Shown here: piece by piece, positions 1,659 to 42,576 of the stretch
Numbering within the stretch: position 1 is the first letter of the stretch
Layout: every line of letters starts with the position of its first letter
NCBI GenBank assembly: GCA_016187335.1
Contig: JACPJW010000001.1
Location: forward strand, 404,170 to 468,169
Source of the DNA: Candidatus Aenigmatarchaeota archaeon
GTDB taxonomy: Archaea; Aenigmatarchaeota; Aenigmatarchaeia; GW2011-AR5
Direction of reading: 5' to 3'
DNA: 64,000 nt
Position numbers and translations under genes: made by a program
Notes under the pieces: generated by a model
What the model was told of the DNA's origin: nothing
Seen by the model: the letters and a program-made list of their open reading frames with translations, nothing else
Database searches by the model: none

Positions 1659-1702
1659 TTGCTTTTCCGAGTCTTAAATATTGGATTCTGGTAAATTTTT
1701 TA

Positions 1703-2059: not shown

Positions 2060-2317
2060 TTCTCAGCACCTCTTTTCTATTTTCCTGCCTAACTGCTTAT
2101 CGGGCACAGCAGAACGCTGTGCCTAGATGTAAAAGAAAAACTCAAAAAATTCCGTGCAGAAGTTAGACAAGAAATCAGTATAACAACTAATCAGAACATT
2201 CCGGTTTAGCGAAGAAATTGGTACGGCATCAGTCCACCCTTGTAACATAATAATGAAGCGCTCAAATATATAAATTTATCTGAGCCGCTTTTAAAAACAT
2301 CTTGGCAAAATAAGATT

Positions 2318-3778: not shown

Positions 3779-3804
3779 ATTTTTGATTAAACTTTTTAAA
3801 AAGT

Positions 3805-4947: not shown

Positions 4948-4970
4948 GAAAACACCTAGGGTTTATGCCT

Positions 4971-4989
4971 TACTCTATAGAATAGAGTA
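4971..4989. promoter_or_regulatory. Perfect inverted repeat TACTCTAT-AGA-ATAGAGTA in divergent promoter region
   Basis: Lies between divergently transcribed CBS gene and DAHP synthase gene, next to A/T-rich TATA-like AAATAAATTTATA. Confidence 0.4.
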
Positions 4990-5054
4990 AATAAATTTAT
5001 ACAGATGAAATCTGGGAAAAATTTCTTTTTAAGGTTAATTGTTGTCGTTTATTT

Positions 5055-6335
5055 ATGGCTAAAGACGGTAAATCCAAAAAAGAACATGTAAGAGTCATGG
5101 TAAGAAATTTTGAAGTAGGTAGTGACGAATTATTCATAATAGCAGGCCCTTGTTCTGTTGAAAGCCGAGACCATATCATAGAAATGGCTTATTTAGTTAG
5201 AGGTGCTGGTGCTGATGCCCTACGTGGCGGTGCTTTCAAACCACGCACAGAAGCTGGTAAATTTGATGGCTTGAAAGAAAATGGTTTAAGGTATCTGGTT
5301 GAAGCTAGAGAAAAGACAGGATTGCCGATAGTTACTGAGATAATGGCAATAGAAGATATCCCATTATTTCAACAATACGGTGTTGATGTATATCAAGTAG
5401 GAACAAGAAATGCCCAGAACTTCCCCCTATTACATGCACTCGGAGATCTTGGTGTAACTGTTTTGCTGAAGAGAGGAATGGGAAACAAAGTTGAGGAATG
5501 GCTAGGTGCTGCAAGTCATGTAGTTTCAAGAAGGAATAAAAATCTGATTTTGTGTGAACGAGGAGTGTCTACATTTGATTCTAAGTTATTCAGAAACATG
5601 GCGGATATTGCAGGAATGGCTTACGCAGAAATGGAAGATAAATATCCGGTTTTATTTGACCCAAGCCACGCAACCGGTATTAGAAAACTTGTTCGTCCAA
5701 TGTCTCGCGCTGCTGTTACAGCAGGCGCTGACGGGCTTTTAATAGAAGTTCATGATGATCCGAATTACGCAAAAACAGATGGTCAACAGAGCATATACCC
5801 ACGTGAGCTTGAATTTTTAATAAAGGAAGCTAGGCGACTTAGAGCAGAATATATTGATTCGACGGCAGGACATGAAAAATGGATGGAAAAGCTGCAACCT
5901 AACATGACAATATACTTTCAGAAGGAATATCTAGATGATGTATGCGCTTTATTGGGATCTGATGCAGAGAGATTGAGGGTCAGGTCATACGGAGAAGACA
6001 CAGGAATTCTTCAGGCAAGGGTAAAGACAGGTCATGTAGGAAAATTAAAACAAAAAGGCGGTTATGCTATCGGAAGACTTTCGATGTGGAGTTCAGGTCC
6101 TGGAGAACCAGCTACAATACCGATGGCGAGTGTTGAGGCAGGGGGTCAACCAAAAACAATTCTAACCCTTTACGACAAAGAATTATTAGAAGACGCAGGT
6201 AAAAAGACAATAGACCAACGATACACACATCTTAGAAGATTACAAGTGAGACAATCGCACCCGGGAGATTTAGAACTTATAGCAAAAGCCTTTACGACTT
6301 ATACGGATAGACCTCTTATTCTATATCAACCATAG
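5055..6335 (+). CDS. 3-deoxy-7-phosphoheptulonate (DAHP) synthase, KDO8P-synthase-like class, with ~165 aa C-terminal extension
   Basis: 426 aa; FIIAGPCSVES and DPSHATG motifs typical of class I-beta DAHP synthase; codon third positions visibly more A/T-rich than neighbours. Confidence 0.75.
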   Translation: MAKDGKSKKEHVRVMVRNFEVGSDELFIIAGPCSVESRDHIIEMAYLVRGAGADALRGGAFKPRTEAGKFDGLKENGLRYLVEAREKTGLPIVTEIMAIEDIPLFQQYGVDVYQVGTRNAQNFPLLHALGDLGVTVLLKRGMGNKVEEWLGAASHVVSRRNKNLILCERGVSTFDSKLFRNMADIAGMAYAEMEDKYPVLFDPSHATGIRKLVRPMSRAAVTAGADGLLIEVHDDPNYAKTDGQQSIYPRELEFLIKEARRLRAEYIDSTAGHEKWMEKLQPNMTIYFQKEYLDDVCALLGSDAERLRVRSYGEDTGILQARVKTGHVGKLKQKGGYAIGRLSMWSSGPGEPATIPMASVEAGGQPKTILTLYDKELLEDAGKKTIDQRYTHLRRLQVRQSHPGDLELIAKAFTTYTDRPLILYQP

Positions 6336-6944
6336 TCAAGGCTTATGTCTTGTAATAGCGTAGTAGGTCACGTCTCCTTCGTTATCCACAATCGCCCATA
6401 ACATCCTTGCTCGTATGTTGTGGGCAAGCCTGACAGAGCGCGAAAGTTCCTGGAACGACATGGTGAAATCCTCCGGCACCGAGAAAACTATCCATTTCGT
6501 GTGCTCTTTGGCGGATTTCGGCCCTTTCTTCAGCTGCACGCCCCTTTCATACACGCGGAAGTCGCAGCCGAACTTGAATCCTGTCCTGACAAGCAGCCCG
6601 CGCTCCCTGAGGTCTTCGTAAACGCGGTAGCGCTCCGTGAACCTTTTGTCCAGAGCAGAAGAATGCCTGAACAGCTCGTCGAATGTTATTTGTTTCTTGC
6701 TGCTGTCAAAGACCCTTATCCTGCCGCGCTTCAGCAGCAGGCACGCTTCTACCAGAGCCAGTTCAAGCCTGTCAGGAAGAATTTTGCCGTAATAGCCGGG
6801 CTCGTAAACGCTTTCAAAGTTTTTCCATGCAACTGCTTTGTTCTCTTCCAGCGTTGTATCCACAACTTCTTTGAAAGGCTCCGGCTCCACGTATTCCGGT
6901 CTATCCTCTTCAGAATCATGCTTTTTCTTGGACATTTTGAACAC
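6336..6944 (-). CDS. endA: tRNA-splicing endonuclease subunit
   Basis: 202 aa; GFKFGCDFRVYERG and EHTKW segments match the EndA catalytic-domain fold (Tyr/His/Lys region). Confidence 0.7.
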   Translation of the reverse strand: MFKMSKKKHDSEEDRPEYVEPEPFKEVVDTTLEENKAVAWKNFESVYEPGYYGKILPDRLELALVEACLLLKRGRIRVFDSSKKQITFDELFRHSSALDKRFTERYRVYEDLRERGLLVRTGFKFGCDFRVYERGVQLKKGPKSAKEHTKWIVFSVPEDFTMSFQELSRSVRLAHNIRARMLWAIVDNEGDVTYYAITRHKP

Positions 6945-7079
6945 CTGAGAGGATTATGGATTACCAAAGCCTAGAGTATTCCTTATCATCAATGAAAATT
7001 ATTTCCGTTTGACAGAAGCAAGGTATGGGTCTATGCCCCCTTACTTCATGTTTTTGTTTTTATGACAAAGCTTAAAAGA

Positions 7080-7643
7080 TTAAGCGTAGTTTGTCTCGCC
7101 CGTTGCGCAATTGACGGTCAGATTTCCGCTGCATATGATTTTGTCATTCTCGATGCGCCACTGCTTCACCGTTGCGCTGTCCACATCGGATATTGTGCAG
7201 CATATGGATTTCACTGAGTTTTTCACAAGGTTCTTGTAGCCTATTGCAGATGCAGACTGGTTGGATTTTATGCTGTTTAACTCATTTCTGCATTCGTTCA
7301 GGCTGCTTTCCGACGAAGTTCTCAGGCTTGACAAATCGCCCTCGCACTTGCCAAGGCTTGCCGAATTACTCTGCAGATTCCCGGAACACTCGTTATAAAG
7401 AGCCGTTTTGTCATTAAGGCTTTTTGCGCAATCCACGCGCGCAGTTGAAATAATCTTCAGGTCCTCTTTGGTGTTGTTGAGCTCCGATTCAAGCTTTGTG
7501 GTGTAGGTCGTGTAGCCTGTAAAAACAGTTCCTACGGAATAAAGCACAAAAACAACAAGCACGGCAATAAGCGCGATTCCTATTTTTTTAGTATCTATAT
7601 TCATCTTGCCCGGCGGCGCGTATTCGTAACCCATAATTACCAT
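7080..7643 (-). CDS. Membrane-anchored Cys-rich extracellular protein
   Basis: 187 aa; N-terminal TM helix (IGIALIAVLVVFVLYSVG) followed by Cys-containing repeats. Confidence 0.5.
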   Translation of the reverse strand: MVIMGYEYAPPGKMNIDTKKIGIALIAVLVVFVLYSVGTVFTGYTTYTTKLESELNNTKEDLKIISTARVDCAKSLNDKTALYNECSGNLQSNSASLGKCEGDLSSLRTSSESSLNECRNELNSIKSNQSASAIGYKNLVKNSVKSICCTISDVDSATVKQWRIENDKIICSGNLTVNCATGETNYA

Positions 7644-7743
7644 TTCGCCGGGGCGATATTAATAGGTTGCCTTTAGAAAGCAGCAAAGAAAGCGTAATGC
7701 GGGTGTGATTTAACCCTTTTAGAAAAAGCGTCACGGAAAAAGA

Positions 7744-7980
7744 TGGGAAGGGAGGGATTTCCAGAACTTTTCATCGTTTTCCTCGAAGAACATCAGTTCT
7801 TCGGTATCTCGGAGAACTATCGTTCTCCGCAGATGATCGAACTTTTCTGAAAAGTTCGTTTGGACCCTCGACATTCCCGGCGTAGCACCAATCAAGTGCT
7901 ATGCTCCACGGTCTTCAGCCGTGTGCTCTCCCAGGCTTTGCCAACCGAAAAAATCATTCTCGGTTTTGAGCTACCTTCCC
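7744..7980 (-). tRNA. tRNA-Phe (anticodon GAA) with three putative introns (D-loop, variable loop, T-loop)
   Basis: Minus-strand acceptor GGGAAGG/CCTTCCC with discriminator A; D-stem GCTC/GAGC with AGCCUGGGA loop; anticodon arm CACGG-CUGAAGA-CCGTG; exons sum to about 73 nt; T-loop junction uncertain. Confidence 0.5.
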
Positions 7981-9431: not shown

Positions 9432-12146
9432 TTAATCCAGGAAATCGCCCTTCTTCAGCTTATTAGGAAGGTAGGTCTCGGACATGAACTTAAGGCCGCG
9501 GTGCGACAAAGCTTCTATCTCGGCTTTTATTCCTTTTTCTATCATCAGGTTGATTTCCTTCTTCCATCTCGGGTTCTTGCTAAACCACTCGTAGTTGAGT
9601 AGTTCCTTCGCGCGCTTTATGTCAACTTCCTTGCATTTTATTGTCGCTTTTTTCAGGTCATACTCAAATATATCCGATATAGTAAGACCTATGTATCTGG
9701 CTTCCGGTGTCGCAATCCGATCTGAGACGTGAGCTAGGCTTATGGATCCGGATTTGATAACTGAATAAATATAGAAGCCGTACGAATCACTGTCGCAGCA
9801 TACATATACAGGCAGCTTGTGATCTTGGTTCAGCCTTTGTATCAGCAGCCTTGTTCCGCGTGATGGCTGCCCGCCTGTGCCGATCAAAACGCACTTCTGT
9901 TTCTGCCAGAACTTGTCCTCATGAAGCCGCTCAAAGCCTGCGTTCTTCTCCACGACCAAGACAAAGTCCGCGTTGACTTTTTTGAAATCTATTTCATCCA
10001 CGGTGCTCGGTATGGACCATCCCCCGCTTCCGAGCTTTGACCAGTCTATGCTGTCGCCGCGGTCTTCAATAATAACGTTGCCGGCGACAATGCCCTTTCT
10101 GTCGGTGGTGAGGTGCAATTGCTCGCGCAGAACGTCTATAGCCACTTCTATGTCAACAATTATAGGGTCAGAATTATGTAGAATTATAAATCCATTACCA
10201 CCAATGAAATTCTCAGTAGGTTCGACTGAAAGATCAACTGTATATTCAGGAGTTGGAGCGTCATTTATTTCAACTATCTTGTCCCACATAATGTCACTAT
10301 TAGCTATGGTTTCAAGTTCGGATACCAGCTGTAAATCTGGAGAATACTTTTGTAACTGCATCAAGGCGTTATATAACACAGGTCTGCTTATCGATTCGTT
10401 TTTATTTTCTATATAACTCCATGAAAAGTGGTTCCATTCAACACGATCCTTACAGGACTTTCTGACTTTTTCTACCAATTTCCCTATGTTTGGTATCCTG
10501 TCAGAAGATACGTCGTGTTTCCGCGGCTTACTGAATCTTTTATCATTGATTATTTCAGCCATCAATTTTACATCTTCTCTATTACCTATTCTAATTTCAT
10601 ATGCGTTATGGTGATTAGGATTTTGGACGCTTCTTTTATAGCGATAAATTCTTGCAAAAATTCCAAGCCTAAGCAGTAAAAATACCAATCCGTTAGCCAG
10701 CTTTTCGCTAGTTGTGTGGTACCTTAATCTAAATTTTGGAAGAAAAGTACTACCGTCTCCAAGCATAAACGAGAAAAGAAACATCTGTATACAATTTTCA
10801 GGTGAATCAAGCAAAACACGCGGTATTTCTTTATTCCATGCTCTGCAAGGCTTATACCCAATAACATAAGTCAATATGTGACTCAAAGTATCGTAACCTA
10901 CATTTAGCTTATAAACTCCATCTTTACCTAAACGTATCTTTCCGCTTACACAGCTTTTACCAAATGATTTTTCAAAGCAAATCATAAACTGCTTGAGAAG
11001 CTCTGAAGATTTGTTAGAAATAGCTACATGGTATGATTTTCGTGGTTCAAAAAGTGAATGCGAGCCTTCGCTCAAAAGAAGCCCTAGTACAAATCCTAAA
11101 TTTTCATCTTTTTTTATTAAAGCGTTGTAATAGTTCTTTGCACCCCTTCTTCCAATTTTTATTTTAGGAAGCAGATCTGAAATATCAATTCCGGTCGTTT
11201 TTACGACTTTAATTGGAATTGTTTTCCAGTTAATCCAGTTGGCTTTAACGTCAGACCATACATTCTTGTATCCGAAGTCATTTGAAATATTTTTTAGCTT
11301 ATCATTACCTATAAGCCTGATTATTTCTTTTATCGTGTCTTTATCCGATTTTATGTAAAATTCTTTTAATACACTTTCAGGGCAATTTTCAATAAGCTTT
11401 TCTAAAATATTTATATGATCAGAATTAACACCGACTTCTATTTTTCTTGGGATGGCTATCCAGTCTCCTATCTTTAGTTCTGATGTTTTTATGGATACAG
11501 GTTTTCCTTCAGAATTTGTAAACAAGCTGTGAGATTTAGTTACTTTGACACGCCTGCCACTTGATGTGATTATTTCCTTTACAATGTTAGGCGGGTGTTT
11601 CATTACCATCAGAACTTTCTGCTCCTTAATCCTGTAATTTTCATCGAAAGCGCAAACCTTAATGTCGCCAACTAAAATCTTCTTTTTATTACCATCATCA
11701 TAAATAATTCTCCCAAATTTTTCAGCATGGTCTACGACTTCGCTTGCTTGAGCTATTCTGAGTTCATCGTTTATTCTTACCAACAAAGGTTCATCGGGGC
11801 ATACAGACTCGCTCTGCTCGTCAAAGGTATTCTCGTTGCTGTCCGGCAGTGTCCTTTTCAGGTTGTAGTACATGTCTCGGATGCTGGCATGGATTTTCTC
11901 ATCAATGAGCGATTTACAGAAAGCACCGACCATAAGCGTCTGCATGAACTTCTTGGAGTGCGCGACGTTGAAGTAATACCTTTTTGCTGTCTTGGTGCCA
12001 AGCCTGAGCTGGCCGGTTTTCCTGTCGTAAACTACGTTGGAAAGAGCGCGTATTGGTATCTCTATGTTCGGGTTCTCGCCTTTCTCTATGTCATGCACGA
12101 CTTTCTTGCCCAGAACATTCAGTTCCTTTCTTACGTCTTTTTCCAT
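9432..12146 (-). CDS. top6A: DNA topoisomerase VI subunit A (Spo11-like) interrupted by an intein
   Basis: 904 aa; extein N-part (IPIRALSNVVYD...RDMYY) and C-part (WSKLGSGGWSIPS, Toprim LIGTGGQPSRGTR) match Top6A; central 543 aa has intein/LAGLIDADG blocks. Confidence 0.85.
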   Translation of the reverse strand: MEKDVRKELNVLGKKVVHDIEKGENPNIEIPIRALSNVVYDRKTGQLRLGTKTAKRYYFNVAHSKKFMQTLMVGAFCKSLIDEKIHASIRDMYYNLKRTLPDSNENTFDEQSESVCPDEPLLVRINDELRIAQASEVVDHAEKFGRIIYDDGNKKKILVGDIKVCAFDENYRIKEQKVLMVMKHPPNIVKEIITSSGRRVKVTKSHSLFTNSEGKPVSIKTSELKIGDWIAIPRKIEVGVNSDHINILEKLIENCPESVLKEFYIKSDKDTIKEIIRLIGNDKLKNISNDFGYKNVWSDVKANWINWKTIPIKVVKTTGIDISDLLPKIKIGRRGAKNYYNALIKKDENLGFVLGLLLSEGSHSLFEPRKSYHVAISNKSSELLKQFMICFEKSFGKSCVSGKIRLGKDGVYKLNVGYDTLSHILTYVIGYKPCRAWNKEIPRVLLDSPENCIQMFLFSFMLGDGSTFLPKFRLRYHTTSEKLANGLVFLLLRLGIFARIYRYKRSVQNPNHHNAYEIRIGNREDVKLMAEIINDKRFSKPRKHDVSSDRIPNIGKLVEKVRKSCKDRVEWNHFSWSYIENKNESISRPVLYNALMQLQKYSPDLQLVSELETIANSDIMWDKIVEINDAPTPEYTVDLSVEPTENFIGGNGFIILHNSDPIIVDIEVAIDVLREQLHLTTDRKGIVAGNVIIEDRGDSIDWSKLGSGGWSIPSTVDEIDFKKVNADFVLVVEKNAGFERLHEDKFWQKQKCVLIGTGGQPSRGTRLLIQRLNQDHKLPVYVCCDSDSYGFYIYSVIKSGSISLAHVSDRIATPEARYIGLTISDIFEYDLKKATIKCKEVDIKRAKELLNYEWFSKNPRWKKEINLMIEKGIKAEIEALSHRGLKFMSETYLPNKLKKGDFLD
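10173..11801 (-). mobile_element. Intein with LAGLIDADG homing-endonuclease domain inside top6A
   Basis: Begins with Cys after ...DEQSESV, block B GRRVKVTKSHSLFT, LAGLIDADG-like LGFVLGLLLSEGS and FLFSFMLGDGS, ends GFIILHN followed by Ser; region is A/T-rich relative to exteins. Confidence 0.7.
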
Positions 12147-15336: not shown

Positions 15337-15392
15337 GCGATGAAATTTGCTGTAAAGTATAAGAACACATGACGGATACATTTTTTTGACAG

Positions 15393-15473
15393 AACTTTTT
15401 CCTAAAAAGTTCTTTTTGATTAAACTTTTTCCTAAAAAGTTCTTTTTGATTAAACTTTTTCCTAAAAAGTTTA
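15393..15473. repeat. Tandem array (about 2.7 copies) of 30-bp unit AACTTTTTCCTAAAAAGTTCTTTTTGATTA
   Basis: Direct repeats read from sequence; each unit contains the palindrome AACTTTTT-CCT-AAAAAGTT; lies immediately upstream of the zinc-ribbon gene start. Confidence 0.85.
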
Positions 15474-21261: not shown

Positions 21262-21981
21262 TCAGATTAAGTCCAGATTTATGACGGTTTTTGTTATGAT
21301 CTTGCCGTTTTCTTCCGTTTCCGACGTGCCTTTGCTTTCAATTATGATTGAGTGGTCAAGGCCGGCGCTTTTGACCTGGTCTGAAGTGAGCACAAGAGAA
21401 TAAACCCTTATAGTCTGCGTTTTCAGCGGCACATATCGCAGCGTATAAGATGTCAGGTACTTGTTTTCGTCAAGCTTCACGCTCTTGACGCACAGGATGC
21501 CTGCGTCGTCAGAGCCCCATGCCCCTTCCGAAGCCGTGCACGTGCTGTTCTTCAGCGGTATCTCCGCGCCCGTGGCGTATATCGTCCCTTGCGTATCTGC
21601 GTCGAGCTGGATTACCCAGCCGTTCGGGCTGCTGTCTATTTTCACGATGCCTGACGCCGTGATTTTCAGCTGGTCTCGTCCGCCGGTGTTTGCAACTGTC
21701 TTTATCTTGCTGTCCAGGGTTTTCATGAACTGCTCGCTGCTCTGCAGCAGCGAGACGTCCTTGTTTTTCTGTATAAGGGGTATTCCCCAAAGATAGACGG
21801 ATCCCACGATGCCGATCAGTATCCCGCTCAGGAGTATCGCCGTGACAGCCTGTTCCTGGCCTTTAGAGGAGAAAAACCAAGGTTTTTCTCCCTCTACCCT
21901 CTTTTCCTTATTATTTTTTGATAGAACTTTTTTGTAAAAAGTTCTTCTCATTCCCTTATTAGAAATATTATTTGACATCAA
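21262..21981 (-). CDS. Pilin-like protein with class III signal peptide
   Basis: 239 aa; SSKGQEQAVTAILLSGILIGIVGSV; true start uncertain, an AACTTTTTT-AAAAAGTT palindrome sits in the first codons. Confidence 0.5.
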   Translation of the reverse strand: MMSNNISNKGMRRTFYKKVLSKNNKEKRVEGEKPWFFSSKGQEQAVTAILLSGILIGIVGSVYLWGIPLIQKNKDVSLLQSSEQFMKTLDSKIKTVANTGGRDQLKITASGIVKIDSSPNGWVIQLDADTQGTIYATGAEIPLKNSTCTASEGAWGSDDAGILCVKSVKLDENKYLTSYTLRYVPLKTQTIRVYSLVLTSDQVKSAGLDHSIIIESKGTSETEENGKIITKTVINLDLI

Positions 21982-22491: not shown

Positions 22492-22577
22492 GAACAATAC
22501 ACCACATATCCGTTTTGATAGAACTTTTTTGAAAAGTTCTCTTTTATTATATTTGCAAAAGCGGTATAAATAGGTTT

Positions 22578-23617: not shown

Positions 23618-23749
23618 ATGTGCGTTGGTGCAATGAGAGGCTTCCTTACAAAGGAGGAAAAAATAGAAATGCTCAAGGAATACAAGGACTCCCTGGAAAA
23701 GGAAGCCGACGGGGTTGAGGAAAGAATCAAGGAACTGGAAAAAGACTGA
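23618..23749 (+). CDS. Small 43-aa hypothetical protein (not in ORF track)
   Basis: ATG preceded by GGAG; MCVGAMRGFLTKEEKIEMLKEYKDSLEKEADGVEERIKELEKD; charged helical. Confidence 0.3.
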   Translation: MCVGAMRGFLTKEEKIEMLKEYKDSLEKEADGVEERIKELEKD

Positions 23750-23951
23750 TTTTTTCTTTGTTTTTTATAAATTTTTTCTGCTGCTCAGGCATGAAAGGGA
23801 GCTGGAAAAAAACCAGCAGCCTGTCGAGAAGCGCAGGAAGAAATGAAAAAAGAACTCTGAGAAGTTCTGCCCTTTTGGTTAAACTCCTTCGAAGAACAAA
23901 GTTCTTCGAGGTCTCAGAGAAACTTCGTTTCTCTGCAGATTTTGGAAAAGT

Positions 23952-25598
23952 TTACTCCATGTCCATGTCTTCGCCGCCGGGCATTCCGCCAGGGCCGCCT
24001 CTCGGCATGCCGCCGCCGGACTTTGACGTTATGACGTCGTCTATGCGCAGTATCATTTCCGCCGCTTCCGTTGCGGACTTGATGGCCTGCGTCTTTATCT
24101 TCAGCGGCTCGACGACGCCGTTCTTCTTCATATCCTCTACTTTTCCGTTGACAACATCTATGCCGTAAGCGGATTTTCCTTTGTCGTGCAGCGTCCTTAA
24201 CTCTACAAGAAGATCAATAGGATCGCGTCCAGTGCTTTCAGCCAGCGTTCTTGGAATTATTTCAACAGCCTCGGCAAACGAATTTATTGCCAGCTGTTCT
24301 CTTCCGCCGACGGATTCTGCGTATTCCCTGAGCTTGCGGGCGATCTCTATCTCTACGGCTCCGCCGCCGTAGACAACCTTGCCTACTTCCAGGGCAGAAA
24401 TAACACCCAGGACTGCGTCGTCCATTGCGCGCTTCGCCTCGTCAACAACATGCTCCGTTCCGCCGCGCACAAGAATGCTTACTGATTTAGGATCCTTGCA
24501 GTCGCGGACAAAGATCATCTCTTCGCCGGCAATCTTCTGCTCCTCAACTAATCCGGCATAGCCTAAATCATCCTTTGATATCTCTTCCAGGTTCGAAACG
24601 ATGTTGGCGCCCGTGGCTTTTGCCAGCTTTTCCATGTCGCTTTTCTTCACGCGCCTTGCAGCTATAGTGCCTTCCTTGGCAAGATAATGCTGCGCTAAAT
24701 CATCAATGCCTTTCTGGCAGAAAACAACATTGCATCCTGTCGCTGACACCTTCTTTACCATTTCCTTGAGCATCTTTGTTTCCTGCTCGAGAAACGCCTG
24801 AAGCTGGTCAGGTGATGTTATTCTTATTTCCGCGTTCGTTTCGGTTTCCTTTACCTCCAGAGCCACATCCAGCAGCACTATTTTCGCATCCTTGACGCGC
24901 TTTGGCATGTTAGGATGCACAACTTCCTTGTCAATGACAATTCCCTTTATCAGTTCCGTGTCGTCAATTGAGCCGCCCTGCTTCTTCTCTATTTTCACAT
25001 CGTCCTTGTCGATGACAACCTTGCCGTTGTCCTGTTCCGCGACCATCTTGACAGCTTCAACGGCTAATTTCGCCAGGGATTCCTTTGCCGCTTCGCCGCC
25101 CTTCCCTGTCATTGCTGTCATCGCTATTTTCTGCAGCATTTCCGTGTCATTAATGTCAATGTCTTCGCCTATTTCCTGCAAAACTTCCAGCGCTTTTGTC
25201 TTCGAAAGCCTGTAACCCCTTACGATCATCGTGGGATGTATTTCCTGCTCCAGAAGACCCTCTGCTTTCTTCAGCAATTCACCAGCAAGAATTACTGCCG
25301 TGGTCGTGCCGTCGCCGACCTCGTCTTCCTGCGTCTTCGCCACTTCAACAATCATCTTTGCGGCAGGATGCTCTATTTCCATGTCCTCCAGTATTGTCGC
25401 GCCGTCGTTGGTTATGGTGACGTCACCTATAGAATTAACAAGCATCTTGTCCATGCCGCGCGGGCCCAGCGTAGTCCTTACAGACTCAGCAACGGCTTTC
25501 GCTGCCATTATGTTGCGCGACTGCGCGTCCCTTCCAGTGTTCCTCAAAGTGCCTTCCGGCAGGATGAATATAGGCTGTCCGCCAAGCTGGTTCACCAT
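23952..25598 (-). CDS. ths: Thermosome subunit (group II chaperonin)
   Basis: 548 aa; [27 protein letters not shown] and C-terminal GGMPGG repeats. Confidence 0.95.
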
Positions 25599-25750
25599 TT
25601 CAAATACACCTCGTTAATAGAATTTCTTTCCATGCACGCTTTCATTTTTGACGCAACTTTTTCCTAAAAGTTGCCGTATACTTTCATGCACATACATAGA
25701 AGAAGCTAATCTTTAAAAGGGTTGCGGTGCGGCTTAGCGTGTCACACAAT

Positions 25751-26329
25751 TCACAGGAACGACAGGCCGTAGCTTCCCAGATGAAGCCTGTAGTGAGACC
25801 TTACGTTATCGCTTCCAAAATAGTTCAGCAGGCCGAGACTTCTTGCCGCTTTCAGCGCATGAGTCCATGCGAACCTCTCTGAAAATCTTTCGTATTCCTC
25901 ATCCCCGAACGCTTTTATGCAGAATTCATGCACGGCCGCCAGCTGCTCAGAGTAAGACCCTGACAGGCTGCCGTGGCATAGTAAGGCATGGAGCGAGTCG
26001 TAAGTTTTTGCATGTCCTATTTCATGAAAAGACGACAGGATCCTTATCTCCCTTTCCCGCAGTTTCGGAATGCTTATTTGTATCTCCGGCACTGGCCTTA
26101 TGACGCCGTTCTCCCTTATGCAAATTTTGAAATTGGACCTGACAGGAATGAAAGTCCATCTGCCATTTTCCAGCAGATCGTTGAGCCTTATTACGCTTCC
26201 ATTTACACGGTAGTCGAAGAAATAGTTGCCACCTTCATGGGATTTGTCTTTGTAGAATGAAACCCCGTTTCCATTTTGATATTCGATTGAGCCCTCTTCG
26301 TATATTCTTGATGTAGGATTAGTATTCAC
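25751..26329 (-). CDS. HExxH-motif protein, putative zinc metallopeptidase
   Basis: 192 aa; FHEIGHAKTY motif; directly downstream of HTH regulator on same strand. Confidence 0.45.
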   Translation of the reverse strand: MNTNPTSRIYEEGSIEYQNGNGVSFYKDKSHEGGNYFFDYRVNGSVIRLNDLLENGRWTFIPVRSNFKICIRENGVIRPVPEIQISIPKLREREIRILSSFHEIGHAKTYDSLHALLCHGSLSGSYSEQLAAVHEFCIKAFGDEEYERFSERFAWTHALKAARSLGLLNYFGSDNVRSHYRLHLGSYGLSFL

Positions 26330-26331
26330 GT

Positions 26332-27312
26332 TTAGCTTCCATCACCCTTCTTTGCTGCTCTGACAATGTCCCGCTTTGTCATCTCCTTCAGCTCATCGGC
26401 AGGAATAACCGGGATTTCCAGTTCCATTCTTTTCTTCGTGACAACAATGACGGGTTTTTCGGTTATTTCTGAAAACGCCAGCATATATCCCTCGTTCTTC
26501 TCCACTCTTTTCTCGTTTTCTTCAGCATCGGAGAATACCAGAAAACGCTCCTTGTCATGCGTTTTGGCAATGATGTTGAAAGGCGCCTGGTAAACAAAGG
26601 AAGTTCCAAAGCCCTTCCTTTTCAGCTCTTTTGATATTGCCCTTTCAAATGCAGTCCTCGGCTCTTTGCCTGCCTCTTCAAAAGAGAAAGAAGTGAAGTC
26701 AATGCTTCTCGTTACGGAGCCCAGCAGCCGCTCCATTTTCTTCGCTATAACATATTTTGATTTCATCATTTTCCTTTCATGTTCGTAGACGTTCTTCTTT
26801 GTCGTGCCCAGTTTTTCCGCCAGTTCGCTCTGAGAGAATCCCCTGCCCTCTCTGGCATCCCGCAGCAGTTCTGGATCCACTTCGGCAAAAAAGCCGCCCC
26901 TGAACCTGTAAATCAGCGGGTTTATGTTGTGCACAAGAATATTTTCAAGCGTCTTAGGCGTGAAGGTGGGTATATCAAACCTGTCGTATATCACATTGTC
27001 ATGGAGCTTCTCGCGCCTTGTCCAGATGCCTACCAGGGCGGGCGAGGCGTCCAGATTTGATGACAGCGTTTTCAGGTTGTCTGATTGCTCTTCCTGGAAA
27101 GAATCAACGTTCTCAAGAACCTTCAGCAGAATCACTTCCTGCTTCCTGGCTATTATGTCAAAGCACCCGCTGTATTCGCTGTAATCGTAGTCAGACCTTT
27201 CCAGGATACGCCCGATTTCCTCCCTTAGCATGCATAACGTTTTCGGGAAAACTTTAAAACAATAATATCCAAGCAGATATTCAAAGAGCCAATTCAAAAG
27301 AGCTTGAAGCAC
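26332..27312 (-). CDS. HTH (XRE-like) transcriptional regulator with extra domains
   Basis: 326 aa; helix-turn-helix GRGFSQSELAEKLGTTKKNVYEHERKM in the middle of the protein. Confidence 0.6.
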   Translation of the reverse strand: MLQALLNWLFEYLLGYYCFKVFPKTLCMLREEIGRILERSDYDYSEYSGCFDIIARKQEVILLKVLENVDSFQEEQSDNLKTLSSNLDASPALVGIWTRREKLHDNVIYDRFDIPTFTPKTLENILVHNINPLIYRFRGGFFAEVDPELLRDAREGRGFSQSELAEKLGTTKKNVYEHERKMMKSKYVIAKKMERLLGSVTRSIDFTSFSFEEAGKEPRTAFERAISKELKRKGFGTSFVYQAPFNIIAKTHDKERFLVFSDAEENEKRVEKNEGYMLAFSEITEKPVIVVTKKRMELEIPVIPADELKEMTKRDIVRAAKKGDGS

Positions 27313-27332
27313 TTTGTGCTTCGTTCGGCTAT

Positions 27333-27491
27333 GGGCCGGTAGCTCAGTGGTAGAGCACCTGTCTTATACGACGTGTTTTCTTAATTGGAAAAAGAAAACA
27401 TTGCTAAGCCAGCAGGGGGTCGAGAGTCCGATACAAACTTTTCCAAAAAGTTTGATCAAAAGGGAAAGTTGCGGAATCCTCTCCCGGCCCA
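27333..27491 (+). tRNA. tRNA-Ile (anticodon UAU) with anticodon-loop intron and T-loop intron
   Basis: GGGCCGG-TA-GCTC-AGTGGTA-GAGC-A-CCTGT-CTTATA then ~42-nt intron, A-GCAGG; 3' end CTCTC-CCGGCCC-A; exons sum to about 72 nt; T-loop junction ambiguous. Confidence 0.6.
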
Positions 27492-28827: not shown

Positions 28828-28940
28828 GGGCTTGTAGTCTAGAGACCCTTTAGAAAAAGCGTCTACGAAAAGGGTTGGAAAATGGTTATGACGTCGCCTT
28901 CACACGGCGAAGGTCGGCGGTTCGAATCCGCCCGAGCCCA
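28828..28940 (+). tRNA. tRNA-Val (anticodon CAC) with 40-nt D-loop intron
   Basis: GGGCTTG-TA-GTCT-AG [intron 28843-28882] TGGTTA-TGAC-G-TCGCC-TTCACAC-GGCGA-AGGTC-GGCGG-TTCGAAT-CCGCC-CGAGCCC-A; exons sum to 73 nt. Confidence 0.8.
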
Positions 28941-35903: not shown

Positions 35904-38900
35904 TTACTTTATTTTCTTTATCTCTATACCTATTTTCCTGCCTTCAAAGTCCAGTTTTTCCCCTTCCGCCTTCGCGAACACGACCTTCGCCGCCCCCACT
36001 TCGTTCTTTATTTCTTTTTCCCATTTCTTCAGTTCCCCGGCCCCTTCTATTTTCAAGGCAATTTTGTCCATGACAACAAGCCCTGATTTCTTGCGCATAT
36101 CCTGCACTTTTCTGACAACCTCGCGGAGCAGGGCCTCTTTTTTCAGCTCGTCGGTGAGCAGCGTGTCCAGTTCCAGCTTGCCGCCGTCAAAGGGAACGCC
36201 ATTGTTCGTGTTTGCAAAAACAGCGGCTTTGACATTGCACATATTCTTTATTATTTCTGCAAAAGGCTTGAGATTCTCTTTGCTGTCCACTGTAAGCTTT
36301 GCCAGGGGCCACCTTATTTTTATGTTGCTTTCATGCCTTTGCGAGTTGGATGCTTCGACAAGGTTTTTTACGATATTCATGGCTTTCTCCGCCTTTGCGC
36401 TGATGTATTTTGAATCGTACTTAGGCCAGTCCCTGGTATGCACGGATTCCTTTTCGCCGAGGATTTCGAGGTTTATCTGCTCGGCGAGATACGGCGTTAT
36501 AGGCGCTAAAAGCTGCGATGTTTTTTCTGCTATCTCGTATAAGGTGTAAAAGGCCGCTTCCTTGTCTTTCCCTGAATACGCCGGCCATACGCGGTCCCGG
36601 ATCAGCTTTATGTACCACCTTGAAAAGTCGTTTACTAGGAAATCATGCAGCTCTGTTACGGCCTTGTGGCCGTTGTAGCTGCAGAAATGCTGGGTGCAGT
36701 TCTTTATGGTGGTGTTCAGGCGCGAAAGAATCCATTTGTCCTCTATATTCAGTTTTTTTGGCATTGAACCGCTTGACGCGTCGGTCTGTTTCGGTTTTGT
36801 TGCGTAGGTCTTCACGAAATTAAAGCTGTTTTCTATCACAATAAGAGACCTCGCAATGGCTTCAACGTCCGGCCACTTGAAGTAGAAGTCATCCCACGGC
36901 GCGCTTGACAGCAGATAGAAGCGAAGCACGTCCCGGCCGTATTTTTTTATAATGTCCTCCGGCTCGACAATATTTCCTTTGCTCTTTGACATTTTCACGC
37001 CGTGAGCGTCAAGTATGAAGCCGTGGAAAAGTATGTTCGTGAAGGGCTTCTCATCAAATGTTATTACCGACGTTATCAGCTCGGCGTTCCACCAGCCTCT
37101 GATTTGATCCGGGCCTTCTGTCTGGAAGTCGCTTGGCCACAGTTTCTTGAACAACGCCTTGTTTTTCGGGTAGCCGAGGGATGCCCATCCGGCAAGGCCG
37201 GCGTCAAACCAGACATCAAGGACATCGGCTATCCGTTTCATCGCAGAGCCGCACCTGCATTTCAAAAAAACGTTATCAATGTAAGGCCTGTGCAAATCAC
37301 GGGGTATTTCCGGCAATTCGTCAGCGGAGCCGATGACCTTGACGCTTTCGCATTTCTCGCATATCCATATCGGCAGCGGTATGCCCCAGTAGCGCTGCCT
37401 TGATATAGGCCAGTCGCCGAGGTTTTCAAGCCAGTTGTTGAACCGTTGCTTTGCCCATTCAGGGTACCAGTTCACATTCTTGTTTTCCTTGATGAGCTTG
37501 TCCCTTATCTTCGTCACGCGGAAGAACCACTGCGACACGGATATCAGCAGCAGGGGAGTGCTGCAGCGCCAGCATTGCGGGTAGTCGTGCGTTATCGTTT
37601 CCTCCTTCAGCAGCAGGTCTTTTTCCTTCAGCAGTTCAATTATTTTTTTGTCGCTTGCCTTGACAGGATTTCCAGCAAAAGCACCGCATTTCTCGTCAAA
37701 AGTGCCGTTGATTTTCACCGGAGATATTATGGGCAATTTGTTTTCCAGACCGACTTTGTAGTCCTCCTGTCCGTGCCCGGGGGCGGTGTGGACAAGCCCG
37801 GTGCCGTCTTCCATGCTCACGTACTGCTCTGAAAGCACAACCTTGTGCGCGCCTTTGAGCTGCTGCTGGAATGTAAAAATGTCCCGGAGCGGATGCTCGT
37901 ATTCTGTCCCAGCCAGCTTTTTTCCGGGAAACGTTTCCACAATGCTGAATGGCAGTCCGGCTTTCTTCATAACAGCTTCAAGAAGCGGCTTTGCCAGGAT
38001 AAGAAATTCAGTTCCACCAGAACTTTCCACCATTACCTTGACATATTCGTGCTTCGGATGCGCCATGATGCCTGTATTAGCTGGTAACGTCCACGGCGTT
38101 GTCGTCCATATGACCAGGAACACGTTTTCTTGTCCTTTCACCGGAAACTTAACATAAATAGAAGGGTCCTTGGCTTTGCTGTATTCTATTTCGTTGTACG
38201 CAACGGCTGTTTCGCAATTATGTGTCAAGAAGCCGTTAGTTATAAAGTTGTGATGAGTTTCAACTGCTATATCACATACTTTCCGTTTCCCCTTATATTT
38301 TATAGAATTTATTTCATCCCAAATAAATCCGTCTCTGAGGTCTTTTGCAGCATTTTTTAACCATGCATCGAATGCAGGGGTATATTTGGCAGCACGAACT
38401 GACTTAGACTTGCCATAAACCACATGCCTTACATAAAGTTCAGGTAAGTTAAGCATAATTGCGATTTTGCTGCAAGGGATCTTAGAATGTCTTAGTGATA
38501 AGATCCTACCTTTCAATTTTCTGTATTGTTTCTCAAGTGATTTTTTGTACAGAAGATAGCCCAAAACATGCGAAGCCCTGATTTTTCTGTATTTACAGTA
38601 CTCGTATCCTAAATACCGTATGAATTTAATGAGGTTGTAATCGTTGCAATCTATACTGATAGTGGTCTTCGATTTTTCTATTTTATTAACAATATTTCTT
38701 TCTGTTTTTATTTCTCCTGTCGATACCCCAAACTTATTGATAAGCGCGCATATCTGTTTTGCAAATTCCATCCCGTTTTCTTCTAGATGTCTATTTTTTG
38801 TAAGGTAAAGCCTCAGGCATTCAAATCCCTTTCCATATTTTCTGGGGCTTATTATCTGGAGTTCGCTTCCGAAGTAAGATGCCAAAAATTCCCTTGTTAA

Positions 38901-40421
38901 TTTTTTATTGGACTTTATCCATTTTGGCACAAATGTCTTTGTTTCCGTCTTTTTTCCTATAGGACAGCCTAGCGTTATAAGCAAAACAGCCAAAGACAAA
39001 GAATAACATCTCATGGATGTTGTAAATCCCTTTATTGCTCTGCCATTTACGACAGATTTAGTTGGCACGGTTGAAATATCCGAATGGCTAAAGCCAAGAA
39101 TCTTTAGGTCTTTTTGGATTTCTTTTAAATCTTCCTCTTTTCCGCAGAAATCTATGCCAAATACCGGGAATTTTCTGTTTTTAGATGTACGTACAACAAT
39201 AGATCCATCACCAAAAATATGACCTGCCAATCTGGCTAAAATAAATGATTTTGTAGATTTACTGTGAAGAGGTATCAGTTCTTTATCTTTCAATTCATTT
39301 ATTATAGAATCGTAGCGCGTAAACGTATTTACTTTTAAAATTTTTGCTACCCATGATTTTGAAACTCTTATTTTGAAGGCGTTTTGTATTTCTTTAATAA
39401 TTTTAGTATATGAATAGTTATTTTTTCTAAGTTCGGCAACAAAGTTCTTAATTTTAATTTTCGAATGACTTGTAAGGTCGTTAAATTTATGCAGATCTCT
39501 GAAAACTATATTTTCTAAGTTCTGCAAAGTAAACATTACATTATTCTCATTTACAAGAGCTTTGCCTGTTTCCGTAATTTCCGGCAGTCTGCTTTCCACA
39601 TTATTATATACGGCCACTTTGGTTCCTATTCTGAGCTTAGAAAGAGTCATCCATCCATCTTGCGTCCAGAACGGATGATCACTCGAAGCGATTAGTTTCT
39701 TTCCTGTTAGCGTTTTTACAAGAAATACATTATCTTCCAATTCCACATAGCCCAGAGGTTTTGCCGTAGTTAGAAGTTTAGAATTAGTATCAACAGCTAC
39801 AACCGTGTTGTGTTTCCAGCAGCCTTTCAGTTCTCCTATTTTTCTTGTTCCCCCTTCAACAAGAATAGTAGAATTAGGATCAACGCATCTCGGGCATACA
39901 TGCACCGGATAAAGACCCTTGTAGAGCAGTCCCTTGTCGTAAGCGGTCTTGAACGTGTGCCACGCGCCCTCTATGTACTCGTTGTTGTACGTTATGTAAG
40001 GGTTGTCCCAGTCCATCCACACGCCAAGATTCAGGAACTGGTTATTCATGACAGAAATGAACTGGCTGACGAACGCCCTGCATTCCTTGTTGAATCTCTC
40101 GACGCCTAGCCTTTCTATATCAGCCTTTGATTTTATCTCCAGTTTTTGCTCGACCTTGTTTTCTATCGGCAGCCCGTGGGTGTCGTAGCCCGGCTGGTCC
40201 CATACGTCGAAGCCGGACATGCGCCAGAATCGGATGTAGCTATCCTTCAATATTTTGTTCCAGGCAGTGCCTATGTGTATGTAGCCCGTGGCGTAAGGCG
40301 GGCCGTCAAGGAAGTAGAATTTCTTCTTTCCTTTTCTTTTTGTCTTGGCCTTCTGGTAAATGCCGTCTTTTGCCCAGAACTCGGCGATTTCTTCTTCTTT
40401 TTTCTTGCGGCTTTCTATCAT
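35904..40421 (-). CDS. ileS: Isoleucyl-tRNA synthetase interrupted by an intein
   Basis: 1505 aa; HIGH (YIHIGT), KMSKS (KMSKSKGN), WPISRQRYWGIPLP; 557-aa insertion between CPR and CETA of the zinc-binding region. Confidence 0.9.
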   Translation of the reverse strand: MIESRKKKEEEIAEFWAKDGIYQKAKTKRKGKKKFYFLDGPPYATGYIHIGTAWNKILKDSYIRFWRMSGFDVWDQPGYDTHGLPIENKVEQKLEIKSKADIERLGVERFNKECRAFVSQFISVMNNQFLNLGVWMDWDNPYITYNNEYIEGAWHTFKTAYDKGLLYKGLYPVHVCPRCVDPNSTILVEGGTRKIGELKGCWKHNTVVAVDTNSKLLTTAKPLGYVELEDNVFLVKTLTGKKLIASSDHPFWTQDGWMTLSKLRIGTKVAVYNNVESRLPEITETGKALVNENNVMFTLQNLENIVFRDLHKFNDLTSHSKIKIKNFVAELRKNNYSYTKIIKEIQNAFKIRVSKSWVAKILKVNTFTRYDSIINELKDKELIPLHSKSTKSFILARLAGHIFGDGSIVVRTSKNRKFPVFGIDFCGKEEDLKEIQKDLKILGFSHSDISTVPTKSVVNGRAIKGFTTSMRCYSLSLAVLLITLGCPIGKKTETKTFVPKWIKSNKKLTREFLASYFGSELQIISPRKYGKGFECLRLYLTKNRHLEENGMEFAKQICALINKFGVSTGEIKTERNIVNKIEKSKTTISIDCNDYNLIKFIRYLGYEYCKYRKIRASHVLGYLLYKKSLEKQYRKLKGRILSLRHSKIPCSKIAIMLNLPELYVRHVVYGKSKSVRAAKYTPAFDAWLKNAAKDLRDGFIWDEINSIKYKGKRKVCDIAVETHHNFITNGFLTHNCETAVAYNEIEYSKAKDPSIYVKFPVKGQENVFLVIWTTTPWTLPANTGIMAHPKHEYVKVMVESSGGTEFLILAKPLLEAVMKKAGLPFSIVETFPGKKLAGTEYEHPLRDIFTFQQQLKGAHKVVLSEQYVSMEDGTGLVHTAPGHGQEDYKVGLENKLPIISPVKINGTFDEKCGAFAGNPVKASDKKIIELLKEKDLLLKEETITHDYPQCWRCSTPLLLISVSQWFFRVTKIRDKLIKENKNVNWYPEWAKQRFNNWLENLGDWPISRQRYWGIPLPIWICEKCESVKVIGSADELPEIPRDLHRPYIDNVFLKCRCGSAMKRIADVLDVWFDAGLAGWASLGYPKNKALFKKLWPSDFQTEGPDQIRGWWNAELITSVITFDEKPFTNILFHGFILDAHGVKMSKSKGNIVEPEDIIKKYGRDVLRFYLLSSAPWDDFYFKWPDVEAIARSLIVIENSFNFVKTYATKPKQTDASSGSMPKKLNIEDKWILSRLNTTIKNCTQHFCSYNGHKAVTELHDFLVNDFSRWYIKLIRDRVWPAYSGKDKEAAFYTLYEIAEKTSQLLAPITPYLAEQINLEILGEKESVHTRDWPKYDSKYISAKAEKAMNIVKNLVEASNSQRHESNIKIRWPLAKLTVDSKENLKPFAEIIKNMCNVKAAVFANTNNGVPFDGGKLELDTLLTDELKKEALLREVVRKVQDMRKKSGLVVMDKIALKIEGAGELKKWEKEIKNEVGAAKVVFAKAEGEKLDFEGRKIGIEIKKIK
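38217..39887 (-). mobile_element. Intein with LAGLIDADG homing-endonuclease domain inside ileS
   Basis: Starts CVDPNSTILVEGG, contains ILARLAGHIFGDGSI, ends FLTHN followed by Cys; A/T-rich relative to exteins. Confidence 0.7.
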
Positions 40422-41195: not shown

Positions 41196-41330
41196 GGCCG
41201 CCATGGTGTAGAAAGCCCTTTTTGACGCTTCGCTTATCAAAAAGCGCTTGCGGAAATAATTAGGGTTTGCAAATTGGTAGCATCGGAGCCTGTGGAGCTC
41301 CTTGGCTGGGTTCGAATCCCAGTGGCGGCC
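41196..41330 (+). tRNA. tRNA-His (anticodon GUG) with encoded G-1 and 63-nt D-loop intron
   Basis: G-1 plus GCCGCCA, D-stem GTGT/GCAT, D-loop AG [intron 41212-41274] TGGTA, anticodon arm GGAGC-CTGTGGA-GCTCC, T-arm CTGGG-TTCGAAT-CCCAG, acceptor TGGCGGC, discriminator C. Confidence 0.8.
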
Positions 41331-42248: not shown

Positions 42249-42300
42249 GAATCAGGAAAATATTTAGCTGTAAAATAAACCACAGAAAATAAAATCAGCC

Positions 42301-42576
42301 CTATCCAGTCCTCTTTATCACGTGCCAGCCGAACTCGGTTTTCACGGGCTGGGAAATCTGGTCCTTTTCCAGAGCGAATGCAGCCATCTCGAACGTCCTG
42401 ACCATCATGCCCCTTCCAAAAGAACCAAGGTCTCCGCCATGCTTTCTTGACGGGCATAAAGAATGCTGCTGCGCAAGCTCCGCGAAGCTCTCGCCTTTCT
42501 TGATCTTGTCAAGGATAAGCTTTACTTCCTGCTCAGTTTTCACAAGGATGTGCGAGCATCGCACTTGGGATGGCAT
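42301..42576 (-). CDS. Parvulin-type peptidyl-prolyl cis-trans isomerase
   Basis: 91 aa; CSHILVKT, GGDLGSFGRGMMV, TEFGWHVIKR. Confidence 0.8.
   Translation of the reverse strand: MPSQVRCSHILVKTEQEVKLILDKIKKGESFAELAQQHSLCPSRKHGGDLGSFGRGMMVRTFEMAAFALEKDQISQPVKTEFGWHVIKRTG

Follow-up and report, generated by a model that had tools for sequence, protein, structure and literature searches.

Gene content of the window

The 64-kb stretch of DNA analysed here (the window) contains two tRNA genes, tRNA-Ile(UAU) and tRNA-Phe(GAA), each of which is interrupted by an intron within the T-loop and has a C at tRNA position 55, as well as a gene for the tRNA-splicing endonuclease EndA. The coordinates of tRNA-Ile were parsed by hand and checked by script. 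The features of these three genes are as follows.

27333..27491, plus strand: tRNA-Ile(UAU) gene with two introns; exons 27333-27368, 27411-27432 and 27478-27491
27369..27410, plus strand: tRNA-Ile 37/38 intron, 42 nt, at the canonical position; its central helix CTTA/TAAG and anticodon stem CCTGT/GCAGG fit the BHB rule
27433..27477, plus strand: tRNA-Ile T-loop intron, 45 nt, between positions 59 and 60; strict hBHBh' motif; 'type A' family
27428, plus strand: C55 of tRNA-Ile, read directly (T54, C55 and C56 at 27427, 27428 and 27429)
27472..27475, plus strand: CGGA, the intron-side strand of the tRNA-Ile central helix; G27474 pairs with C55
7744..7980, minus strand: tRNA-Phe(GAA) gene with three introns; exons 7980-7967, 7936-7906, 7873-7859 and 7757-7744
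7937..7966, minus strand: tRNA-Phe D-loop intron, ∼30 nt; bounds uncertain by 1-2 nt, taken from the D-loop of intron-less orthologues
7874..7905, minus strand: tRNA-Phe variable-region intron, ∼32 nt, at 44/45; bounds set to give the variable loop GTGTC
7758..7858, minus strand: tRNA-Phe T-loop intron, 101 nt, between positions 59 and 60; strict hBHBh' motif; type A core with two extra internal hairpins
7863, minus strand: C55 of tRNA-Phe, read directly (T54, C55 and C56 at 7864, 7863 and 7862)
7760..7763, minus strand: TGGA, the intron-side strand of the tRNA-Phe central helix; G7761 pairs with C55
6336..6935, minus strand: EndA, tRNA-splicing endonuclease, 199 aa (Pfam tRNA_int_endo_N and tRNA_int_endo)

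Judging from its gene content and from thermosome identities, the window is from a Candidatus Aenigmatarchaeota (DPANN) archaeon. Its ORFs (∼48 scanned against Pfam) include topoisomerase VI, thermosome, fibrillarin/Nop5 and several aminoacyl-tRNA synthetases, and its thermosome shares 91% identity with the one encoded in a groundwater Candidatus Aenigmatarchaeota genome (L002; JACQIH010000037), and 77–83% with most other Aenigmatarchaeota matches.

The EndA gene lies ∼0.8 kb from tRNA-Phe, and exact-protein look-ups with the Nudix protein and the 187-aa protein adjoining tRNA-Phe returned no match. The best solved relatives of EndA are the M. jannaschii homotetramer 1a79 (E = 6e-33) and the N. 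equitans catalytic subunit 3iey_A, and it has in common with the latter subunit the insertion KKGPKSAKEH (KKGxxSxxEH). Kaneta et al. describe an insertion typical of DPANN enzymes that is linked to increased tRNA gene disruption (PMC5829648), to which KKGPKSAKEH may correspond. The EndA encoded in the window is presumably the enzyme cutting the introns listed above.

Detection of the tRNA genes

ARAGORN at its default settings reports no tRNAs across the window and, when run with introns and a relaxed threshold, makes many spurious calls, among them a 'tRNA-Phe' at 42261-42379 that was rejected because it lies inside a coding region. At the Rfam gathering threshold three of the window tRNAs, which number at least ten, are recovered. 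The tRNA-Ile gene is sub-threshold in the Rfam tRNA model (20.7 bits against a threshold of 29), tRNA-Phe gives no Rfam tRNA match even at E≤1, and the intron elements match no Rfam family at E≤1. Scanning with an intron-tolerant search for a T-arm together with an acceptor stem yielded ten window tRNA genes, of which the eight besides tRNA-Ile and tRNA-Phe are listed here.

8521-8403, minus strand: tRNA, probably Asn
28828-28940, plus strand: tRNA-Val
41197-41330, plus strand: tRNA-His
51229-51492, plus strand: tRNA, no identity given; keeps U55:A with a 59/60 intron
56405-56509, plus strand: tRNA, no identity given
57023-57282, plus strand: tRNA, no identity given; keeps U55:A with a 59/60 intron
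59485-59665, plus strand: tRNA, no identity given
60292-60563, plus strand: tRNA, no identity given; keeps U55:A with a 59/60 intron

Most of the window tRNA genes contain multiple introns, and the anticodons GAA and TAT are each found in one gene within the 64-kb window. Default tRNA finders overlook most tRNA genes of this DPANN lineage, and the 'incomplete' tRNA sets reported for such DPANN genomes should be read with caution.

Splice junctions of the T-loop introns

The interval 27427-27478, to which the original prediction drew attention, extends exactly from T54 to C60 of tRNA-Ile with the T-loop intron included. After the T stem GAGAG the tRNA-Ile gene continues TCCGATACAAAC..., with ...GTTGCGGAATC-CTCTC-CCGGCCC-A as its 3' portion; the minus-strand tRNA-Phe gene continues TCCAAACGAAC... 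after GAGGG and has ...GTTCTGGAAAT-CCCTC-CCTTCCC-A as its 3' portion. Direct reading of both genes thus bears out the claim that TCC occupies positions 54-56. We note that the T-arms and intron ends of the two genes are alike (GTCGAGRGTCCRA ... AAAGTTSYGGAAWT).

The motif on which the archaeal splicing endonuclease acts has a 4-bp helix with a 3-nt bulge at each end (PMC5829648). A script applied this BHB rule, with the two bulges on opposite strands. In the canonical 37/38 case, cleavage falls two bases 3' of each helix strand. The script found one strict hBHBh' motif in each T-arm, which is the computational prediction that had been called for. The tRNA-Ile motif, gagag-TCCG-AT^A-caa...ttg-CGGA-AT^C-ctctc, has helices of 5 bp (h) and 3 bp (h') and bulges ATA and ATC, with the inner helix resuming past a 1-nt bulge, and the tRNA-Phe motif, gaggg-TCCA-AA^C-gaacttttca...tgaaaagttc-TGGA-AA^T-ccctc, has h=5 and h'=10 and bulges AAC and AAT. 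In both genes the outer helix is the 5-bp T stem and the inner helix is the intron hairpin. The RNAfold minimum-energy structure of tRNA-Ile is made up of exactly 5 bp plus 4 bp, with the inner helix set between two 3-nt bulges (z = -2.6), and that of tRNA-Phe likewise contains the BHB motif (z = -7.3).

Cleavage is predicted after position 59 in both genes, at TCCGAT^A...CGGAAT^C in tRNA-Ile and TCCAAA^C...TGGAAA^T in tRNA-Phe, and on this geometry both T-loop introns are placed at 59/60, a documented non-canonical intron site in archaea (PMC4090602). The junctions of the original hand parse, at 56/57 with a 5' exon ending in TCC and a 3' exon beginning (G)AAT, are therefore wrong, and the tRNA-Ile loop that it gave, TCC(G)AATC, is replaced by TCCGATC. 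The same parse had offered shifted splice sites or an atypical T-loop as alternatives. Both turn out to be true: the junctions move to 59/60 and C55 stays in the 5' exon. It had also been suggested that differently placed junctions might give a canonical TTCRAAT loop. No placement of the junctions gives TTC, since the 5' exon includes the whole of positions 54-59, and the 5' side reads T-C-C-G-A-T-A in tRNA-Ile and T-C-C-A-A-A-C in tRNA-Phe. When all 7-nt loops that the sequence allows are listed, they start with CGG, TGG, TCG or TCC in tRNA-Ile and with TGG, TCG or TCC in tRNA-Phe, so that alternative junctions giving TTC do not exist and a TTCRAAT loop is unobtainable from the DNA.

Splicing tRNA-Ile in silico gives a 72-nt molecule that ARAGORN scores as a perfect cloverleaf tRNA-Ile(tat) with a 7-nt T-loop TCCGATC, its T-arm being GAGAG-UCCGAUC-CUCUC; the predicted junction would join ...GAGAGUCCGAU to CCUCUC.... 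The spliced tRNA-Phe, of 74 nt, is likewise a perfect cloverleaf tRNA-Phe(gaa) with the 7-nt T-loop TCCAAAT and the T-arm GAGGG-UCCAAAU-CCCUC, and here ...GAGGGUCCAAA would be joined to UCCCUC....

Comparison with relatives places the tRNA-Ile intron at the same site. A syntenic orthologue of tRNA-Ile(UAU) is present in ∼19 Aenigmatarchaeota relatives, where it is the sole Ile(UAU) gene seen, and four orthologues without the intron (L002, L018, L019 and L014) align with a single 45-nt gap at 27433-27477, between T59 and C60. The junction is flanked by GAGTTCGAT and CCTCT in the relatives, as against GAGTCCGAT and CCTCT in the window. The intron itself is identical at 39 of its 45 positions to the 59/60 intron of an unrelated tRNA at a metagenome locus, L058.

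The remaining introns conform less strictly to the rule. The 37/38 motif of tRNA-Ile is slightly relaxed, its inner helix beginning with an internal loop, and the script found no strict BHB parse for the D-loop and variable-region introns of tRNA-Phe. The bounds of these two were taken from orthologues, to which homologues of the adjoining EndA gene had led: the D-loop AGCCTGGGA is without an intron in L072, L074 and L078, and the variable loop is uninterrupted in L072 and L074.

C55 at the DNA level

Within the T-loop of a tRNA, U54 and A58 form a reverse-Hoogsteen pair, and U55 is both the substrate for pseudouridine 55 and the partner of G18; pseudouridine 55 helps to hold T-loop and D-loop together at the elbow of the tRNA. 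Few features of tRNAs are as conserved across all domains of life as U55, in its modified form pseudouridine 55 (PMC7912444), and this conservation is extreme (PMC7912444, PMC1616971). Both window genes have C at this position, at 27428 on the plus strand and 7863 on the minus strand.

The window comes from a metagenome-assembled genome, and intron repeats break short-read assemblies near both sites, so we considered whether the two C residues might be sequencing or assembly errors. The Logan assemblies of three separate sequencing runs, all from a groundwater series, contain identical bases with zero mismatches over several kb: contig L001 (SRR12113430) spans 23654-27462 and includes C55 of tRNA-Ile, and contigs L067/L082 (SRR12113383), spanning 3958-7888, and L081 (SRR12113424), spanning 1-7933, include C55 of tRNA-Phe, with zero mismatches across the relevant bases in every case. 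The same change is moreover present at two loci, each with a complementary G in its intron, and the chance of error at both positions is vanishingly small. The atypical T-loop is confirmed as real at the DNA level.

It is also rare. Among the distinct genuine tRNA T-arms within ∼0.8 Mb of related sequence, ∼42 read TTC and the two described here alone read TCC, and the eight other window tRNAs all have U55. All of the ∼19 syntenic tRNA-Ile orthologues have U55, with the loop TTCGATC or TTCAAAT, as do all three tRNA-Phe orthologues (L072, L074 and L078), with the loop TTCAAAT; at the EndA locus of the L002 genome (L071) tRNA-Phe is absent. From its L002 orthologue, which has the loop TTCGATC, the window tRNA-Ile differs solely at position 55 and in a compensated T-stem pair, A49-U65 having become G49-C65. 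Between spliced tRNA-Phe and its spliced L072 orthologue, 72 of 74 positions agree, and the two differences are U55C and a change of G7·U66 to G7-C66; the other introns of these two genes differ in position and sequence, and their EndA proteins are 86% identical.

Two or three introns per gene, together with a mutation at a near-invariant base and the failure of standard tools to find either gene, could be taken to mean that these loci are decaying, non-functional tRNA genes invaded by mobile introns, with canonical copies elsewhere in the genome. We regard this as improbable. All four stems are perfect in both genes, the BHB motifs are strict, and U54, C56, R57, A58, Y60, the G53-C61 pair and G18 and G19 of the D-loop are all intact, with D-loops unchanged from those of the orthologues; neither gene has broken stems, lost identity elements or diverged rapidly. 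The match of tRNA-Phe to L072 has persisted despite complete turnover of the other introns, tRNA-Ile occupies the conserved syntenic position of the sole Ile(UAU) gene seen in its relatives, the window contains no other gene with a GAA or TAT anticodon, and multi-intron tRNA genes are the norm in the window. The agreement with orthologues, the intact T-loop and D-loop bases and the lack of a second GAA or TAT gene in the window together indicate that both genes are probably under purifying selection and not in decay.

Pairing of C55 with an intron G

In both genes C55 pairs with a G of the intron inside the 4-bp central helix of the BHB motif (TCCG/CGGA in tRNA-Ile and TCCA/TGGA in tRNA-Phe). 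By contrast, U55 faces an A, in an intron strand reading CGAA or TGAA, in a further 14 genuine tRNAs that have 59/60 introns; six of these come from metagenomes, five from related genomes and three from the window itself. The L058 intron, for instance, has CGAA where the window tRNA-Ile has CGGA. The tRNA-Phe of a sister lineage, L072, differs again: its 59/60 intron belongs to the family of the window tRNA-Phe intron and likewise provides TGGA, and yet the exon keeps U55, giving a U55·G wobble.

When position 55 and its partner were mutated in silico in the window precursors, the probability of the central helix was 0.95-0.99 with C55:G, 0.54-0.82 with U55:A, 0.19-0.26 with U55·G and ∼0 with C55:A, values that are to be read with the crudeness of nearest-neighbour energies for an isolated 4-bp helix in mind, and with the enzyme itself stabilising the motif. 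The central helix is absent from the minimum-energy folds of the natural precursors L072 (U·G) and L058 (U:A). In these models the C:G pair makes the BHB motif intrinsically stable. It is clearly dispensable, since other tRNAs with 59/60 introns do without it.

Two simple accounts of C55 were rejected. That C55 is required for splicing at 59/60 is contradicted by U55:A in three further tRNAs of the window and in no fewer than 11 from elsewhere. That C55 travels with the type A intron, through co-conversion during transposition, does not hold as a general rule: a scan of metagenomes for T or C at position 55 followed by a type A intron gave ∼14 genuine tRNAs, and ∼14 of the ∼14 have TTC.

Origin and fate of C55

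The explanation that we consider probable is that these are functional genes, single-copy as judged within the 64-kb window of a contig of ∼0.9 Mb (918 kb), that the mature tRNAs left by BHB splicing at 59/60 have C55, and that C55 became fixed as compensation for an A-to-G change in the intron. In each pre-tRNA, the central helix would be formed by positions 54-57 and four bases of the intron, EndA would cut two bases 3' of each helix strand and so release the intron from between positions 59 and 60, and the exons would be joined by a ligase. The mature loops would then be U54-C55-C56-G57-A58-U59-C60 in tRNA-Ile and U54-C55-C56-A57-A58-A59-U60 in tRNA-Phe. Mature tRNAs without U55 could not contain pseudouridine 55.

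As to how this state arose, we propose two steps. The intron base opposite U55 would first have drifted from A to G, a change invisible in the mature tRNA that leaves a weak U·G pair in the 4-bp helix, and a U-to-C change at exon position 55 would then have restored the Watson-Crick pair. Fixation would have been possible if C55 is tolerated in the mature tRNA of a reduced, fast-evolving lineage. In one in-vitro processing study U55-to-C55 was the mildest of the T-loop substitutions (PMC4797305), which is consistent with C55 being tolerable. Had the intron changed before the exon, a U·G pair such as that of L072 would have been the intermediate; this is seen for tRNA-Phe alone, and none is present for tRNA-Ile among the orthologues compared. 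L072 evidently lives with its U·G pair, and the selective push toward C55 may accordingly have been weak.

This last point bears on a second reading, according to which constraint on position 55 is relaxed and C55 is near-neutral (for example because the pseudouridine-55 synthase has been lost or weakened, or because of a small population or an episymbiotic lifestyle), the C55:G pair being incidental or gene-converted and not selected for the BHB motif. Several observations are in keeping with it: two changes to C55 are found in one genome and none in the ∼42 other T-arms, other 59/60 introns function with U55:A and that of L072 with U·G, neither a Pus10 nor a Cbf5 gene was found in the 64-kb window (Pfam scan of ∼48 ORFs), and the T-arms and intron ends of tRNA-Ile and tRNA-Phe are similar, as gene conversion would have it. 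However, the eight other window tRNAs keep U55, so constraint has not been lost generally; the base opposite C55 is G in both genes, as against A in the 14 other tRNAs with 59/60 introns; and the sister lineage has the intron G before the exon C, the order expected for compensation. A conversion tract would have to be very short, given that positions 57 and 59 differ between the two loops. On balance we think drift unlikely, while granting it an appreciable chance, and we infer that selection for the pair was the cause.

A third reading keeps the mature T-loop canonical: C55 would serve the BHB helix of the precursor alone and would be deaminated to U55, and possibly pseudouridylated, after splicing. 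Archaeal C-to-U editing of tRNA has a precedent in the conversion of C8 to U8 by CDAT8 in Methanopyrus kandleri; we know of no precedent for editing at tRNA position 55. The extreme conservation of U55 and pseudouridine 55 (PMC7912444, PMC1616971) lends the idea some weight, as does the finding from the in-silico mutants that the C is useful solely in the precursor helix. Set against this, no deaminase-like gene was detected by Pfam among the ∼48 ORFs of the 64-kb window, which represents <10% of the genome, and the reduced genomes of DPANN archaea argue against a dedicated enzyme for two tRNAs. We judge editing to be very improbable, and consider it more likely that these elongator tRNAs translate with C55 and no pseudouridine 55. 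Were editing to prove true, it would reveal a previously unknown archaeal tRNA editing site coupled to intron removal.

If compensation for the intron change is the correct explanation, the two genes illustrate compactly how an intron can shape its own exon in nature, with U55 changed to C in two essential elongator tRNAs, and they provide a natural test of the extent to which tRNAs can do without U55 and its pseudouridine. Should C55 persist in the mature tRNAs, upkeep of a splicing motif would have overridden one of the most conserved bases of tRNA.

Comparison with known systems

BHB introns at 59/60 are known from Crenarchaeota/Thermoproteales and from other archaea (PMC4090602). The T-loop introns of the window resemble them in site, in hBHBh' geometry, in having the T stem as outer helix and bases 54-57 in the central helix, in the presence of several introns per gene and in their presumed removal by the splicing endonuclease, and differ from them in the DPANN host, the single ∼200-aa EndA and the pairing of C55 with an intron G.

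Multi-intron tRNAs, 59/60 introns and families of transposed introns have been described in Thermoproteales and noted for DPANN (PMC4090602, PMC5829648), and near-identical introns across different tRNAs and positions were attributed in Thermoproteales to 'intron transposition' (Fujishima et al. 2010, summarised in PMC4090602). The T-loop intron families of the window are likewise common to different tRNAs and positions; they occur in many metagenomes, and type A introns are present at 59/60 in ∼14 (at least 13) metagenome tRNAs. Unlike the Thermoproteales families they belong to a different clade, and the same hairpin is also found in intergenic positions, 5' of genes and in tRNA 3' trailers. 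To our knowledge, a hairpin element outside tRNAs has not been described for the Thermoproteales families.

The parallel with the CDAT8 system lies in a genomic C at a structurally critical and otherwise invariant U, and serves as precedent for the minority reading of editing alone; the position is different, and the window holds no deaminase candidate. With the canonical T-loop that is the substrate of Pus10 and Cbf5 (PMC7912444, PMC1616971), the predicted loops have in common U54, C56, R57, A58, Y60 and G53-C61, along with G18 and G19, and depart from it at C55, which would make pseudouridine 55 impossible and alter or abolish the G18-Ψ55 contact. What appears to be new is that a near-invariant T-loop base of the exon has changed together with the intron base it pairs with, and that the intermediate is preserved. 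We are aware of no published example of a near-invariant tRNA base being given up on the exon side of a BHB helix.

tRNA gene content and intron turnover

The 64-kb window contains at least ten tRNA genes, most of which have one to three introns. Default ARAGORN called no tRNA in it, and the Rfam curated threshold yielded three. Routine annotation of this lineage would give a badly incomplete tRNA set.

We compared the tRNA-Phe gene of the window (7980-7744) with its orthologue at locus L072 (1287-1453). The 59/60 intron is common to the two genes and the remaining introns are placed differently: L072 carries them after position 8/9 and at 28/29, and in the window gene they interrupt the D-loop and the variable region. 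The orthologue at L074 has a sole intron in the D-arm, and that at L078 is interrupted by introns at 28/29 and within the variable region. Intron gain and loss in tRNA-Phe is rapid relative to an almost constant mature sequence.

The tRNA-Ile gene with a UAU anticodon (27333-27491) retains its syntenic position across Aenigmatarchaeota, being present at about 19 related loci (e.g. 8256-8134 in the groundwater sequence L002). Archaea usually read AUA with an agmatidine-modified CAU tRNA; the syntenic conservation of tRNA-Ile(UAU) suggests that AUA is decoded in Aenigmatarchaeota by the UAU tRNA instead. The window also encodes an arginase/agmatinase-family protein:

49395-50465, arginase/agmatinase-family gene

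Splicing endonuclease and intein matches

The endonuclease gene and the genes with intein matches are as follows:

6336-6935 (-), tRNA-splicing endonuclease, about 0.8 kb from tRNA-Phe
9432-12146 (-), topoisomerase VI A subunit with an intein (Intein_splicing and LAGLIDADG_3 domains)
35904-40421 (-), isoleucyl-tRNA synthetase with an Intein_splicing match

The endonuclease is a single protein of about 200 aa that is most similar to the M. jannaschii homotetramer, and it has a short insertion in common with the N. equitans catalytic subunit. A domain search of the isoleucyl-tRNA synthetase found no LAGLIDADG domain.

Recurring intron elements

Two sequence families recur among the introns, labelled here type A and type B. 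Type A, which forms the core of the T-loop introns of tRNA-Ile and tRNA-Phe, is an xAACTTTT-N(2-4)-AAAAGTTx hairpin followed by (R)ATCAAAA...GGAAAG. A scan of the window gave 11 matches to this pattern (0.5 expected), and an Rfam search returned no matching family. The elements are located as follows:

7831-7846, 27446-27461, 51264-51279 and 57231-57246, within tRNA introns
3781-3796, 15384-15459, 21916-21931, 22513-22528 and 25646-25661, not in tRNAs

Outside tRNAs, type A elements occur in intergenic positions, with a TATA-like box on one side and a start codon on the other, and upstream of the thermosome gene; in relatives, a type A element lies directly 3' of tRNA-Ile. At 15384-15459 (-), the spacer separating two same-strand genes carries three 30-nt copies of the hairpin element head-to-tail, AACTTTTTAGGAAAAAGTTTAATCAAAAAG.

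Several public short-read Logan assemblies of this organism stop within the introns of tRNA-Phe and tRNA-Ile (window positions 7888, 7916, 7933 and 27462), likely due to the repeat nature of the intron elements.

Type B has the pattern ...CCCTTT..AAAGCG-N4-CGGAAA..., with eight matches in the window scan against 0.06 expected:

28856-28871, 41241-41256, 51446-51461, 57198-57213, 59526-59541, 59590-59605, 60323-60338 and 60518-60533, within tRNA introns

In the tRNA at 57023-57282 (+), the 93-nt T-loop intron is a type B element enclosing a type A element, and the elements therefore insert into one another.

All eight type B matches are intronic and are spread over six tRNA genes, where the introns interrupt the D-loop, the anticodon region or the T-loop. 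This distribution resembles the intron transposition known from the Thermoproteales.
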